A model generated the notes under the pieces. It saw nothing but the letters and a program-made list of their open reading frames with translations. It was not told the DNA's origin and ran no database searches. Shown here piece after piece: positions 1 to 14,432 of a stretch of 30,695 bases of DNA. The translations under genes were made by a program, and so were the position numbers. How positions within the stretch are numbered: position 1 is the stretch's first letter; each line of letters starts with the position of its first letter. The stretch comes from a bacterium (lineage in GTDB: Bacteria; Hydrothermota; 32-111): positions 1 through 30,695 of the forward strand of contig JBFXGO010000032.1 in NCBI GenBank assembly GCA_050239825.1. The letters run 5' to 3'.

Positions 1-82
1 CTGGAAATATCTTCTCTCCACCTATGCCTCTGTTCATAACATGGTGGTATGCTTCTTTATAAGTAACTCGCGCTCTTCTCAT
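1..82 (-). CDS. RAYT-like HUH/Y1 transposase, N-terminal 27 codons (runs off the window edge)
   Basis: Manual translation from the ATG at 82 gives MRRARVTYKEAYHHVMNRGIGGEKIFP. This contains the YH(V)xNRG N-terminal motif of Y1_Tnp/RAYT proteins and is 13/27 identical to the N-terminus of 11012..11902. GGAGG SD at 91-95. Confidence 0.85.
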   Translation of the reverse strand, partial: MRRARVTYKEAYHHVMNRGIGGEKIFP

Positions 83-8924: not shown

Positions 8925-9356
8925 TTATCTATCAGAGTAAGATATTAAACTTGAAAGAGACCCGGAAGGCAATGGCGAAATTCCAGAAATGAACTCGTCT
9001 GCGATGGAAGAATTTTCGTTAACAGTCTTCTTGATATAAGCCGCCTTCCCCTGTTGAAGAGAGAATGCAAATGAGGATATGAATACCATAAGCATGGCAA
9101 GACCGAATGCCAACTGCATAACTCTCTTTGGCTTGGCATTTGTTTTAAATTGTGCTGATTCTTCAATTTTTGAATAGAGAGAGGAAGGAACCTCTATGTC
9201 GGCAAATCTGACCTCGCTCTTTATACTGAGAAATTCCTTATGCATATTTCTGCAAGAGTCGCATAACAAGAGGTGCTTTTCAATTTCTCTGAACCGATCT
9301 TTATCAAGTTCGCCATCAATGTATTTTGAAATTTCAACAGGTTCATAGTGTTTCAT
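8925..9356 (-). CDS. Zinc-binding anti-sigma factor (zf-HC2/ZAS) with one TM helix
   Basis: YIDGEL…HLLLCDSC (HxxxCxxC), a single TM segment, and a 4-nt overlap with the ECF sigma gene. Confidence 0.88.
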   Translation of the reverse strand: MKHYEPVEISKYIDGELDKDRFREIEKHLLLCDSCRNMHKEFLSIKSEVRFADIEVPSSLYSKIEESAQFKTNAKPKRVMQLAFGLAMLMVFISSFAFSLQQGKAAYIKKTVNENSSIADEFISGISPLPSGSLSSLISYSDR

Positions 9357-9922
9357 AAATTCTCCTTTAATGATTCGCTTGCATTAAGCTCTTTCAAACT
9401 CTGTCTGATGTTTTCTCTGGCTCTATAAATAAGAGATTCAACCGCCTTCTCCGATACCTTCATAATTGATGCTATCTCTCTGTATTTCAAATTCTCTTTT
9501 TGAGAGAGGATAAACGCCGTCTTCTGATTTTCAGGGAGAAGATTCAAAATCTTCTTTGCCTTTTCATCACGCTCTTTCTCTTCTTTGACTGGTGAATCTT
9601 CTGCCACATCCGCGGCGAACTCAATATTTGTCAGCAACTCATCCTTTTTATGTTTTCTTATATATGAAACTGCTGAGTTGGCAGTAATTCTGTATATCCA
9701 AGTGGAAAGGGATGATTTTTTTTTGAAACTTTCCGCCTTCTTATAAAGAATAAGAAAGACCTCCTGAGAGATATCTTCTGCGGCATGGTAATCATAAACA
9801 TGAGAATAAGAGAGATTGAAAACTCTCTTTGAGTATCTTTTAAAGAGCTCCTTGAACGCTTTCTGGTCATTCCCTGCTACGAGAATTATAAGCTGTTCGT
9901 CACTCTGAGTTGAATAGTCCAT
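9353..9922 (-). CDS. ECF sigma-70 factor (start re-called to 9922, MDYSTQSDEQL)
   Basis: Region 2 AEDISQEVF…STWIYRITAN and region 4 LPENQK…YREIASIM…VESLIYRAR. The ORF-track extension to 10015 overlaps the upstream gene and a hairpin. Confidence 0.9.
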   Translation of the reverse strand: MDYSTQSDEQLIILVAGNDQKAFKELFKRYSKRVFNLSYSHVYDYHAAEDISQEVFLILYKKAESFKKKSSLSTWIYRITANSAVSYIRKHKKDELLTNIEFAADVAEDSPVKEEKERDEKAKKILNLLPENQKTAFILSQKENLKYREIASIMKVSEKAVESLIYRARENIRQSLKELNASESLKENL

Positions 9923-9929
9923 AAGTTCA

Positions 9930-9949
9930 GGCGGGGCAAATGCCCCGCC
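9930..9949. terminator. GC-rich hairpin between the Spy/CpxP gene and the ECF sigma gene
   Basis: Perfect inverted repeat GGCGGGGCA-AA-TGCCCCGCC. No U-tract follows it on the coding strand, so function is uncertain. Confidence 0.45.
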
Positions 9950-9962
9950 CTCTCTGTGTGTT

Positions 9963-10478
9963 TTATTTACTGCAATTTCCGCAGTCTTCCATATTGTTTT
10001 GCCCGTTATTTCCATATTTCATGCCCTTCTCATTCTTCATCTTCATTCCCACTCTCTTCATGTCGAAGAGTTTCTGCTGATCCTTTGTAAGGATATTTCT
10101 TATCTGAAAATGGTGTGAAATCTTCGCTTTCTGAATCTCTGTATCAATTTTGCCGAGTTCTTCCACTGCGGAGAGAGCCTTCTTTTCGTCAATATTGATC
10201 TGCATGGCTTCGTGAAGGTCAATCATCTTCAAAGCGGATTTATAACGAAGTTCCGCCATTTTCTTTTGATGATTTAACCCAATCTTCTCGATCTTTGCAA
10301 TCTGGTCATCTGTAAGGTCGGGAATATTCATTATTCCTCCCGACTGATGCTCCATCATCATTCCCATGCCCTTGCCATCGCCCTGCATCGAACAGTCACC
10401 GTTCTTGGCGGATATCGGCATCATAAGAAGAACCGACACCAACGCAAACATACCTGTTAATGTTAGAAAACGTTTCAT
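9963..10478 (-). CDS. Spy/CpxP-family periplasmic chaperone
   Basis: Signal peptide, Met/Gly-rich N-terminus, and two LTxxQ motifs (LTDDQ, LTKDQ). Confidence 0.85.
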   Translation of the reverse strand: MKRFLTLTGMFALVSVLLMMPISAKNGDCSMQGDGKGMGMMMEHQSGGIMNIPDLTDDQIAKIEKIGLNHQKKMAELRYKSALKMIDLHEAMQINIDEKKALSAVEELGKIDTEIQKAKISHHFQIRNILTKDQQKLFDMKRVGMKMKNEKGMKYGNNGQNNMEDCGNCSK

Positions 10479-10486
10479 TGTGCCTC

Positions 10487-10930
10487 CTATTTTTTATTTG
10501 TTGTTTTCAAGTTATTCATATGCTGGATTCTTTTTTCAAGAAAATCCATCAGTATTATTCTTTCTGATTCCGGAAGTTCCTTTCTCAAACGGATCATATT
10601 TCTGACAACATTTTTCTCCATATCCTTCTGAATATTTGAAATGGTTATAAGAATTGAGTCAACCTTATGCGTATCAGGGTTCTCACTCTTTAGAACATCA
10701 AATAAACTCTCTCTTGCATTTTCAACTGCTATTATGTATGGTTTATTTGATCTTCCTACAGAATCCATCATCATGCGAAACCTCTCAAAATGCTCGCCCT
10801 TTCCCTCAAATTCGTGAGGCGGACAAGGCATATCTGGTTTATGTGTATTTAGAAATATTATTGAAGAGAGAAAACCGACATTTATTCCTACGCTTATTGC
10901 CAGAATTATATAAAGAATCTTTTCTTTCAT
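10487..10930 (-). CDS. Periplasmic heavy-metal sensor / ZraP-CnrX-like helical protein
   Basis: N-terminal anchor ISVGINVGFL, a His/Pro/Met patch, a helical body and C-terminal LPESER. Lies in the ECF operon. Confidence 0.7.
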   Translation of the reverse strand: MKEKILYIILAISVGINVGFLSSIIFLNTHKPDMPCPPHEFEGKGEHFERFRMMMDSVGRSNKPYIIAVENARESLFDVLKSENPDTHKVDSILITISNIQKDMEKNVVRNMIRLRKELPESERIILMDFLEKRIQHMNNLKTTNKK

Positions 10931-10991: not shown

Positions 10992-11016
10992 CTATAGGGA
11001 CGGAGTATGGTTTATA
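10992..11016 (+). repeat. Left terminal inverted repeat CTATAGGGACGGAGTATGGTTTATA
   Basis: Exact reverse complement of 11917-11941. Contains the RAYT stop codon (11012-11014) and overlaps the 12-bp palindrome TCCCTATAGGGA (10989-11000). Confidence 0.95.
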
Positions 11017-11902
11017 GTTTATTATTTTTCTTCAAGTTGTTGTATAAAGATATGATAGAGCTGTATTTTAAAGTTTTAAATGGATAAATCGCATTGATTT
11101 CTTTAAATGATAATCCCGCCTTTTCCCTCAAATTTACGAGAAGCCTGTTTCTTAATATCAGATTTCTTTCCAAATCTTTTATTGTCACTTCATTTACGTA
11201 CAAAAACTCATCAATCACATCTTTCTTGCTTCTAAATTTCGAATTGATTCTCATGTTCGGTGCTTCCGATACATTCTTTTCCTCTCTTCTATCAAACTTT
11301 TTCTCTACAGTTTTGACAAAATCAGACTCCCCAATTATATCGCCAAATTTTGTTTTTATGCATGACATTGTTTTGCCTATCCAACTGCTTAAAAGTAATT
11401 TAAAATTGTCTTCATTTTGGAAAATATCGCAAACAAATCGTGTTTCTACCCAATCGTTTTCTTTTTGTTTAAAATATATATTGATTGTTGAAAATTGATA
11501 ATCAAAAGCATTATCGACTATTCCGGCGCGATACGGATTTAAAAGAGTATAAATTATTGCAATTTTCAAGTATTGATCATTTTGAATAATTTTTGAATAA
11601 TACCTATCTTGAAGTACATAACCATGCGATTTGTCAAGACTTCTATAAAAAGCAGCAAAAGTGCCATTAACATCCCTCATGAATTTATCCATTTTATTAC
11701 TGGTATTTTGAATTATAAGGTGATAATGATTATCCATTATACAATAAGCAAATAATTTTATTCCTCGTAATTTTGAGTATTTTTTTAGAAGTCCGATCAA
11801 ATAATTTTTGCAGAAAGCTTCTTTTAGAATAGGTTTTCCTTCAAGAGCTCTGCAAGTAATGTGATGGTAAGCACCATCAAATGTTACACGTGCCTTTCTC
11901 AT
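11012..11902 (-). CDS. RAYT-like HUH/Y1 transposase (IS200-like fold) with a C-terminal HTH-like extension
   Basis: AYHHITCR, HUH motif in YCIMDNHYHL, QDRYYS, catalytic Tyr region IYTLLNPYRAG and YQFST. The C-terminal LREKAGLSFKEI resembles a DnaA-C-type HTH. GGAGG SD. Confidence 0.9.
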   Translation of the reverse strand: MRKARVTFDGAYHHITCRALEGKPILKEAFCKNYLIGLLKKYSKLRGIKLFAYCIMDNHYHLIIQNTSNKMDKFMRDVNGTFAAFYRSLDKSHGYVLQDRYYSKIIQNDQYLKIAIIYTLLNPYRAGIVDNAFDYQFSTINIYFKQKENDWVETRFVCDIFQNEDNFKLLLSSWIGKTMSCIKTKFGDIIGESDFVKTVEKKFDRREEKNVSEAPNMRINSKFRSKKDVIDEFLYVNEVTIKDLERNLILRNRLLVNLREKAGLSFKEINAIYPFKTLKYSSIISLYNNLKKNNKL

Positions 11903-11916
11903 TCACACCTCCATAG

Positions 11917-11941
11917 TATAAACCATACTCCGTCCCTATAG
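11917..11941 (-). repeat. Right terminal inverted repeat TATAAACCATACTCCGTCCCTATAG
   Basis: Exact reverse complement of 10992-11016. Ends 14 nt upstream of the RAYT ATG. Confidence 0.95.
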
Positions 11942-11949
11942 CTAAAGTA

Positions 11950-12039
11950 CGGAGAGGCCGGGATTTGAACCCGGGGTAACGGTATAACCACTACAACGGA
12001 TTAGCAATCCGCCGCCTTAGACCGCTCGGCCACCTCTCC
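11950..12039 (-). tRNA. tRNA-Ser (anticodon GCT), long variable arm, CCA not encoded
   Basis: GGAGAGG/CCTCTCC acceptor stem, D-loop GAGCGGTCTAAG, anticodon arm GCGGA-TTGCTAA-TCCGT, T-arm CCGGG-TTCAAAT-CCCGG and discriminator G. Confidence 0.96.
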
Positions 12040-12052
12040 ATGACTCGTCCCC

Positions 12053-12080
12053 ATTATAAGGAATAAGAATAAAATGTCAA
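12053..12080 (-). promoter_or_regulatory. Consensus sigma70 promoter for tRNA-Ser
   Basis: TTGACA (12080-12075)-16 nt-TATAAT (12058-12053), followed by a GC-rich discriminator-like segment. Confidence 0.8.
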
Positions 12081-13607: not shown

Positions 13608-14432
13608 ATGATGAAAAAAAGGTTTTTCTTAGTTCTTTTCACGGTCATCTTCGCAATATCCAATACCGCGGCTCCGCTTATTCCCCTCTTGATTACCGCT
13701 CAGGATGATGTTAAATTAATTGAAATGACAAGCGAACCGGTTCTTGAGGGCGATGGCAACGGAGATGAAAACGGCGGGGGCGGCGATAAGGATAAAGATA
13801 AAGATAAGGATAAGGATAAGGATAAAATCAAAGATGAGGATAATGATGAGAACAATGGTGATGGTAATGATGACAAGGAGAAGAACAAGGACAAAGATAA
13901 AGATAAGGGAAAGGAAAAAGTGAAGGATGACGATAAAGATAAAGATAAAGACAAAGACAAAGACAAGGATAAAGATAAAGATAAGGATAAGGACGATAAC
14001 AATGGAAAAAAGAAAGAACCTCCAAAGAATAAGGATGACAATGGAAATAATGGAAATAATGGTAATAATGGGAATAACGGGAATAACGGGAATAACGGCA
14101 ATAATGGGAATAATGGGAATAACGGCAATAATGGGAATAACGGAAATAATGGGAATAACGGAAATAACGGAAATAATGGTAATAACGGAAACCATTATGG
14201 ATGGAGAAACAGGTGGAGAGACGGTGGCAGCACAAATGATTGGTGTTGTGCCGGGTGCGCGGCCGGAAGCTGCTTAAACTTGGTCGGAAGTGTTGGAGTT
14301 ACTGGAGCAGCTTGTCTGGTTCCGTCAACTCACAAATCAACAAATGTAACTATGAGTATACTGGGCGGTCTTGCCGGAGCTATAATAAATACTGTTATAA
14401 TTGCTATAATTGTAGATCAGATAAAGAACTGA
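13608..14432 (+). CDS. Exported low-complexity protein with (DK)n and (NNG)16 tracts and a Cys/Gly-rich hydrophobic C-terminus
   Basis: AGGAGG SD and signal peptide. The repeats vary only at synonymous positions in this frame. The gene exactly fills the gap between the glnA promoter region and the MFS stop. Confidence 0.8.
   Translation: MMKKRFFLVLFTVIFAISNTAAPLIPLLITAQDDVKLIEMTSEPVLEGDGNGDENGGGGDKDKDKDKDKDKDKIKDEDNDENNGDGNDDKEKNKDKDKDKGKEKVKDDDKDKDKDKDKDKDKDKDKDKDDNNGKKKEPPKNKDDNGNNGNNGNNGNNGNNGNNGNNGNNGNNGNNGNNGNNGNNGNNGNNGNNGNHYGWRNRWRDGGSTNDWCCAGCAAGSCLNLVGSVGVTGAACLVPSTHKSTNVTMSILGGLAGAIINTVIIAIIVDQIKN
13785..13991 (+). repeat. 6-bp GAYAAR tandem tracts encoding (DK)7 at 13785-13826 and (DK)10 at 13932-13991
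   Basis: Read directly from the sequence. Confidence 0.95.
14046..14189 (+). repeat. 16 x 9-bp tandem repeat AATAAYGGN encoding (NNG)16
   Basis: Read directly. Variation is confined to third codon positions. Confidence 0.95.

Follow-up and report, generated by a model that had tools for sequence, protein, structure and literature searches.

The element described here is almost certainly a TIRtron, that is, a RAYT-related Y1/HUH transposase gene (TIRYT, of the TnpA-Y1 subclass 2.1 type) located between its own terminal inverted repeats (TIRs), and it adds a member to a kind that was described in 2013 and has been little studied since. The best explanation, to which a probability of about 0.6 is assigned, is that this TIRtron has long resided behind a tRNA-Ser gene and acts as a RAYT-like resident enzyme for a family of dispersed repeats, using a mechanism in which a helix-turn-helix (HTH) and the Y1 domain cooperate. 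Comparison of relatives suggests how the TIRYT protein may recognise and renew its repeats. The weight of the finding lies in this recognition model and in the concerted replacement of repeats, not in the architecture, which an earlier note on this DNA had flagged.

RAYT-like genes with flanking TIRs were named TIRYT, and the elements TIRtrons, by Di Nocera, De Gregorio and Rocco in 2013 (PMC3733652); the part of that paper available here describes a GGGGWSAS motif in some TIRs and dispersed repeat families in a few genomes. According to the available part of Quentin et al. 2018 (10.1101/279083), 20 of 26 TIRYT examples fall into subclass 2.1, each of them bearing an HTH at the C-terminus, this subclass is equated with group 1 of the RAYTs in the scheme of Bertels et al. 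2017 (PMC5581495), and whether the HTH reads the repeats is left open. Since subclass 2.1 was found in 14.9% of strains in the same study, the substrate of TIRYTs is a real question. The proposal in the earlier note that the element represents a distinct, undescribed class has to be withdrawn in view of these two papers, in which the kind is named and tied to subclass 2.1. Experimental or biochemical work on TIRYTs was not found in the literature searched (subscription journals not covered). What the present comparison adds to the question of recognition is a substrate composed of the core and tandem boxes, a helix as the candidate for recognition, pairs of variants that occur naturally, and a relative that was mobile recently.

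Materials and methods

The window, i.e. the whole stretch of DNA that was analysed, comprises positions 1-30,695 of contig JBFXGO010000032.1 (30,695 nucleotides) and belongs to a genome of 67 contigs, referred to as G000. For the analysis of homologue flanks 80 loci from genomes and 80 loci from metagenomes were used, of which 69 and 57, respectively, were testable, i.e. with enough flank and an intact frame. For the co-variation analysis 37 loci were selected in which the repeat was clear, the core could be recognised and the protein was full-length; dereplication reduced them to 33. Box similarity was compared with the similarity of protein windows (n=71), and tree distance was controlled.

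Organization of the element

Positions 10992-11016 of the window are the exact reverse complement of 11917-11941, and the resulting 25-bp inverted repeat surrounds an HUH/Y1 gene encoding 296 aa, the TAA stop codon of which (11012-11014) lies inside the left repeat (Table 1). The corresponding description in the earlier note is confirmed by the sequence, as are three further properties: the unit is AT-richer than its surroundings (GC 30.4% vs 39.7% in the whole window and 39.8% in the genome), the arms fold into poor hairpins only (-1.6 to -2.0 kcal/mol), and the flanks are not of the REP type, being terminal inverted repeats without a GTAG or GTGG foot. With its extension the pair reaches 31 nt at 94%. 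Its score of 25 is far above chance, the maximum in shuffled-flank controls on homologous loci being 13.

In the orthologues from the two other genomes of the genus, G001 and G002, the outer 5 bp (CTATA) have not been retained in both arms. Because both arms of these orthologues share the inner 20 bp alone, the latter are regarded as the conserved repeat; the length of 25 bp given previously is exact for this copy but exceeds the conserved part. The outer extension is neither a proven target duplication nor a part of the conserved repeat. A terminator-like site was not seen between the tRNA-Ser promoter and the transposase gene, and read-through transcription of the TIRYT gene from the tRNA promoter is therefore plausible.

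Table 1. Features of the element and its immediate surroundings; positions refer to the window.
Feature	Position	Strand	Basis or remark
TIRYT gene, 296 aa: HUH/Y1 nuclease domain, linker and predicted C-terminal DnaA-domain-IV-like helix-turn-helix	11012..11902	-	Pfam, fold match, model
HUH motif H59-Y60-H61	11720..11728	-	conserved among 31 homologues
Y118-x-x-x-N122-P123, class-2 Y motif with presumed catalytic tyrosine	11534..11551	-	Y118 invariant; catalytic role inferred
C-terminal helical domain, aa 219-296	11015..11248	-	model, structure search, co-variation
Last helix, aa 280-292, predicted recognition helix	11027-11065	-	co-variation peak at aa 281-292
Upstream terminal inverted repeat: inward-pointing GGGACGG core, 2-bp spacer, two imperfect 7-bp boxes	11917..11936	-	sequence comparison
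Downstream terminal inverted repeat, same 20 bp, overlapping the stop codon	10997..11016	+	sequence comparison
Outer 5-bp extension, self-complementary, mirrored at 11937-11941	10992..10996	+	not conserved in orthologues
GGAGG ribosome-binding site, between repeat and start codon	11908..11912	-	sequence; retained in G001 and G002
tRNA-Ser(GCT), same strand as the TIRYT gene	11949..12040	-	7 bp outside the right 25-bp arm; 12 bp upstream of the repeat core
Promoter with perfect sigma-70 consensus, upstream of tRNA-Ser	12053..12080	-	sequence

Directly downstream of the element (8925-10930) the window contains an ECF sigma/zinc-finger anti-sigma cluster together with two genes for Spy/CpxP-like periplasmic proteins, and an ORF opposite to glnA (13608-14432) carries a DK repeat of low complexity as well as a collagen-like stretch. 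At positions 1-134 the contig end truncates a further TIRYT gene, of which the start is present (1-82, minus strand), and a repeat of another, related family; contig C57 terminates in the same way, with a paralogous TIRYT start and a repeat.

The encoded protein

The protein matched Pfam Y1_Tnp (E 3e-8, above cut-off) and NCBIfam REP_Tyr_transpos (E 1e-19, below cut-off with 70.9 vs 80), and the top fold match of its model was the E. coli TnpA-REP structure 4ER8 (E 1.7e-6). The closest named protein originates from a WOR-3 bacterium. Among 31 homologues H59 and Y118 were invariant and H61 was nearly invariant, and the class-2 Y---NP motif, present here as Y118-T-L-L-N122-P123, was conserved. 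Comparison of the gene with its homologue L021 revealed 139 third-position vs 38 second-position differences in 289 codons, which indicates purifying selection.

The C-terminal 78 residues were modelled with a pLDDT of 92, and the four best structural matches of this model among 48,161 chains were all DnaA domain IV (Z 6.9-7.5), two of them being DNA-bound structures. According to the model, the domain is a DnaA-domain-IV-like HTH, the Z values near 7 being middling. The full-length protein could be aligned by profile to P0034, which carries Bac_DnaA_C. Pfam returned no HTH match for the 296 aa, and Foldseek returned nothing for the C-terminal domain at E<=0.001; structure rows of the ESM Atlas for this part indicated DnaA_C, each of them falling below the bar for naming, and the Atlas features were uninformative. 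The last helix presumably falls at the position of the DnaA recognition helix.

Repeats of homologues and co-variation with the protein

Inverted repeats scoring at least 15 were present at 53 of the 69 testable genome loci (shuffle maximum 13) and at 45 of the 57 metagenome loci (shuffle maximum 12). Taken together, 98 of 126 testable homologues are flanked by inverted repeats, these counts not being independent due to the fact that several loci are close kin. The core is of the GGGACGG type throughout the closest clade, and both outcomes agree with what the earlier note had expected of a flank search. Many more distant homologues carry exact GGGGTCAG, the published motif; the fit to GGGGWSAS amounts to 6/8 positions in the window copy and 7/8 in one arm of G001.

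The arms are composed of a GC core and tandem boxes of 7-8 bp. Tandem matches of at least 4 nt at a lag of 7 or 8 were detected in 33 of 51 distinct arms as compared to 12% in shuffles, and the enrichment was limited to these two lags (z 4.9 and 6.3). In the same test the window's own arm scored 3 and the arm of the G001 orthologue 8.

Box similarity correlated best with aa 281-292 (partial r 0.39, 33 proteins). The six best of the 71 protein windows were all located inside aa 257-292, whereas the best window elsewhere reached r 0.20. With 200 shuffles the permutation p could not fall below 0.005, the value obtained, and the permutation ignores kinship; the peak persisted when the long branch L061 was left out. 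These data favour the last helix, which co-varies best with the boxes, as the candidate reader of the repeats, and an affirmative answer to the question left by Quentin et al. as to whether the HTH reads them. The earlier suggestion that the C-terminal extension is an HTH plausibly reading the repeats is supported by this peak and by the matches of the model to DnaA domain IV. The predicted TIR/HTH co-variation was recovered as a peak but not as a strict code: the last helix is identical in G000 and G001, yet the boxes differ at two bases, and it differs between G000 and G002, yet the boxes are equal.

Repeat population and concerted change

The repeat family comprises 11 arms in G000 (9 beyond the pair of the element), 21 in G001 and 10 in G002, and arms were not found in G003, G006 and G012, which are family genomes lacking the gene at this site. 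The repeat is indeed unique in the window, as reported before, but not in the genome, where the 9 additional copies occur, and a repeat of a related family is present at the window's edge. At two box positions AC was found in 21/21 arms of G001, GG in 10/11 and AG in one arm of G000, and GG in 7 and AC in 3 arms of G002. Five orthologous arms (both of the element and those on contigs C27, C28 and C33) carry AC in G001 and GG in G000. Three arms of G000 with a decayed core have kept AC, and one of them is orthologous to an arm that is intact in G001. On C18 a GG arm is situated directly outside a decayed AC arm. As five independent double substitutions are unlikely, intact arms appear to have been overwritten or replaced by a core-dependent process, judging from these three genomes.

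The same data bear on two other explanations. In a REPIN-like scheme the arms would pair in single-stranded DNA and the enzyme would read a long-range stem, the HTH serving autoregulation or fork targeting. Near-identical arms within each element, the existence of short arm pairs of 120-300 bp, the self-complementary arms of the distant homologues L057, L058, L079 and L080 and the fact that known HUH enzymes of the family act on folded single strands would all fit such a scheme. It is nevertheless considered unlikely, since 7 of the 11 arms in G000 are unpaired and intact and yet carry the current variant, and since neither the tandem box periodicity nor the link to the last helix is needed for a stem. 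Alternatively, the repeats could be operators of a domesticated DNA-binding protein that are homogenised by host recombination and not moved by the nuclease. All 9 other arms of G000 lie outside long ORFs, some of them close to promoters, and Group 1 RAYTs have been described as single-copy, co-opted genes, both of which would suit operators. This explanation is rendered improbable by the restriction of the variant switch to arms with an intact core, by the invariance of the presumed catalytic residues, by the new-variant arm directly outside the old decayed arm on C18 and by the shortness of 20-bp repeats in unrelated flanks as substrates for host recombination.

Several other repeats were observed. 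Seven repeat families with GGGACGG-like cores occupy 80 sites in G000, not counting 6 sites that belong to the contig-end element described below. They include 148-bp pairs that enclose 3 kb on C19 in inverted orientation, and a 67-bp hybrid between two families at C17:62735-62801. In addition, 48 short palindromes ending in GGGGAC...GTCCCC and a second family of about 8, spread over many contigs, share core letters with the TIRs; none of them was linked to a Y1 gene. On contig C2 of G001 two arms are 37 bp apart.

Residence behind tRNA-Ser

The TIRYT gene of the window is present as a single copy in the genome. The site behind tRNA-Ser(GCT) is occupied in all three genomes of the genus, the protein identity being 72% to G001 and 64% to G002 and within the range of the flanking genes. 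It is also occupied in G004 from another genus (50% identity, visible only up to the contig end). Because the same site is filled in 3/3 genus genomes at 64-72% identity, the window copy looks long resident rather than recently inserted. The gene is nearer to that of G001 while 4/4 flanking genes are nearer to those of G002, and a replacement in place is therefore possible; in the glnA tree the branching of the three genomes was not resolved.

Empty tRNA-Ser sites in relatives, for which the earlier note had proposed to look, were found in the other 8 of the 12 family genomes having the tRNA (it is missing in 2/14); those in G006 and G012 are syntenic but too diverged for boundaries at base level. 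Due to the fact that no base-level empty site was found for the window element among the genomes compared, the cut position is a guess. Neither an abutting-ends (circle-type) junction in the assembly nor a joint at the repeats in the contigs of two sequencing runs was found; since contigs drop rare variants, the latter result carries no weight in either direction. Among 72,556 plasmid records no full-length match to the TIRYT protein was detected.

It is improbable that the window copy is at present moving autonomously as an insertion sequence, as the earlier note had viewed it. The intact gene, the perfect ends, the recent movement of relatives, the empty sites and the discordance between the gene and its flanks would agree with such mobility; the single copy, the position being filled in G001 and G002 as well as in G004 (where the identity is 50%), and the missing plasmid match argue against it. 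The single copy, the constant site across the genus and the dispersed cognate repeats make an IS-like packaging reading weak, and the copy rather seems to act in a RAYT-like manner, as the resident enzyme of a dispersed cognate repeat family.

Targeting of tRNA genes as a trait of the whole family was rejected, as a tRNA was present at 3 of 60 scanned loci, all of them the same tRNA-Ser site. One further paralogue in G000 (on C5) is likewise located just behind a tRNA. At the empty site behind tRNA-Ser in L008 and L009 an 11-base stretch resembles the box part of the repeat, which may be a scar or chance. In G010, G011 and G013 the site behind tRNA-Ser(GCT) holds 5-11 kb of other DNA and hence appears to be a variable spot; the insert in G010 and G013 contains TIRs of another family.

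Mobility of relatives

Four related loci (L034, L035, L036 and L043), two of them in one genome, share 95-97% identity along some 990 bp extending from one repeat to the other; their flanks are unrelated, and a duplication is absent. On this comparison, relatives have recently moved as repeat-to-repeat units without target duplication. A clean empty allele around L036 was not found in a search of three genomes. In G000 a gene-less unit of 211 bp, which bears the repeats of the paralogue on C14, occurs in three 95-96% identical copies, one of which (G000:C28:13860-13896) is located just behind what we take to be the 3' end of the tmRNA. Four complete Y1 genes are present in this genome, each with its own repeat family.

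An abutting direct repeat is absent in 31 of 43 units, and the remaining 12 have only self-complementary ones; the apparent absence of a true target duplication fits HUH chemistry, as expected. TA or TATA adjoins both ends in 11/43 units, the window element included. CTATAG, TATA or TA as target duplication was not supported, a TA duplication and TA-containing ends being inseparable from sequence alone. Movement of the repeats in trans by a DDE transposase (IS630-like, with a TA target) and with the Y1 gene as a passenger, which the adjoining TA and the other multi-copy elements at contig ends of G000 might suggest, is very improbable given the lack of any direct repeat that is not self-complementary, the separate repeat family of each Y1 paralogue and the way in which the repeat sequence follows the Y1 protein.

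Directly outside the element at L034 (1170-1240) three tandem copies of core plus flank suggest repeated joining at the core, and the left flank of L035 and the right flank of L036 contain, by eye, apparent fragments of other TIRYT genes, hinting at nested insertion. At six contig ends of G000 (C3, C9, C13, C23, C28 and C41) an unassembled multi-copy element begins right behind GACGGTGCTT in 6/6 cases. A multi-copy TIRtron, considered because these ends share 100-125 bp behind a GGGACGG-like motif, was rejected since the full core is missing at two of them and a Y1 frame is not present behind it. The contig-end element may be of the IS110 type and target TIR cores; two IS110-family matches are present in G000.

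Proposed mechanism

A mechanism of four steps is proposed, and the chance that it is correct as a whole is put at about even. The TIRYT gene would be read through from the tRNA promoter. The HTH would then bind the tandem boxes as double-stranded DNA, which would take the place of the recognition of hairpins by IS200 and RAYT enzymes. Subsequently, the Y1 domain would nick one strand at the outer edge of the GGGACGG core, inside a T-purine step, and form a 5'-phosphotyrosine; such a step precedes 11/11 arms in G000. Finally, strand transfer between core sites would copy or replace single arms, make short arm pairs and now and then move a whole repeat-bounded unit without duplication.

More generally, and more tentatively, TIRYTs may be HUH transposases with a protein-read code, in which a DnaA-type HTH on double-stranded boxes sets the Y1 domain on the core, and which serve both for transposition and for overwriting intact repeats in place. 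If true, TIRYTs would combine, in an HUH system, a retargetable specificity for double strands with a gene conversion driven by the enzyme, neither of which was found in the literature searched. If the model holds, it would show how an HUH enzyme can handle ends like those of an IS and by what means short, dispersed repeats remain alike.

Comparison with known systems

In comparison to DDE insertion sequences with TIRs, the protein has a Y1 fold, and a non-palindromic duplication is absent in 43 units. With the TnpA of IS200/IS605 elements (IS608, ISDra2) the element probably shares HUH/Y1 chemistry and the absence of target duplication, but it has symmetric ends, neither subterminal hairpins nor tnpB and a protein twice as long (296 aa), for which no NCBIfam IS200 match at E<=0.1 was obtained.

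Members of RAYT groups 2 and 3 with their REPs and REPINs (4ER8; PMC8266576, 10.1101/2021.07.10.451892, as far as available) show the same catalytic fold and likewise combine a single-copy resident gene with dispersed cognate repeats. The element differs from them in the missing GTAG/GTGG foot and hairpin, in the extra HTH domain, in about 10-20 instead of hundreds of repeats per genome and in the movement of its relatives as whole units.

The likeness to subclass 2.1, subgroup 2.1.2 (RAYT group 1; PMC5581495), as characterised in the available text, comprises the Y---NP motif, the long protein, a DnaA_C/HTH-like C-terminal domain, the absence of REPs and a low copy number. The HTH would be related to Bac_DnaA_C, HTH_23 and HTH_28 according to the structural matches and the P0034 alignment, Pfam giving no match.

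The closest agreement is with the TIRtrons. The core here is of the GGGACGG type with 6 of 8 positions of GGGGWSAS, a motif described for some TIRs only, and the available text of PMC3733652 is silent on tandem boxes, target duplication, concerted change and recent spread of whole units. Like the TIRYTs of that text, the gene encodes a RAYT-like tyrosine transposase with HUH motif and presumed catalytic Tyr, its flanking TIRs, unrelated to GTAG REPs, take the place of REPs close to or overlapping the gene, the core is G-rich, and the dispersed repeat family is moderately abundant and occurs as singles and pairs.
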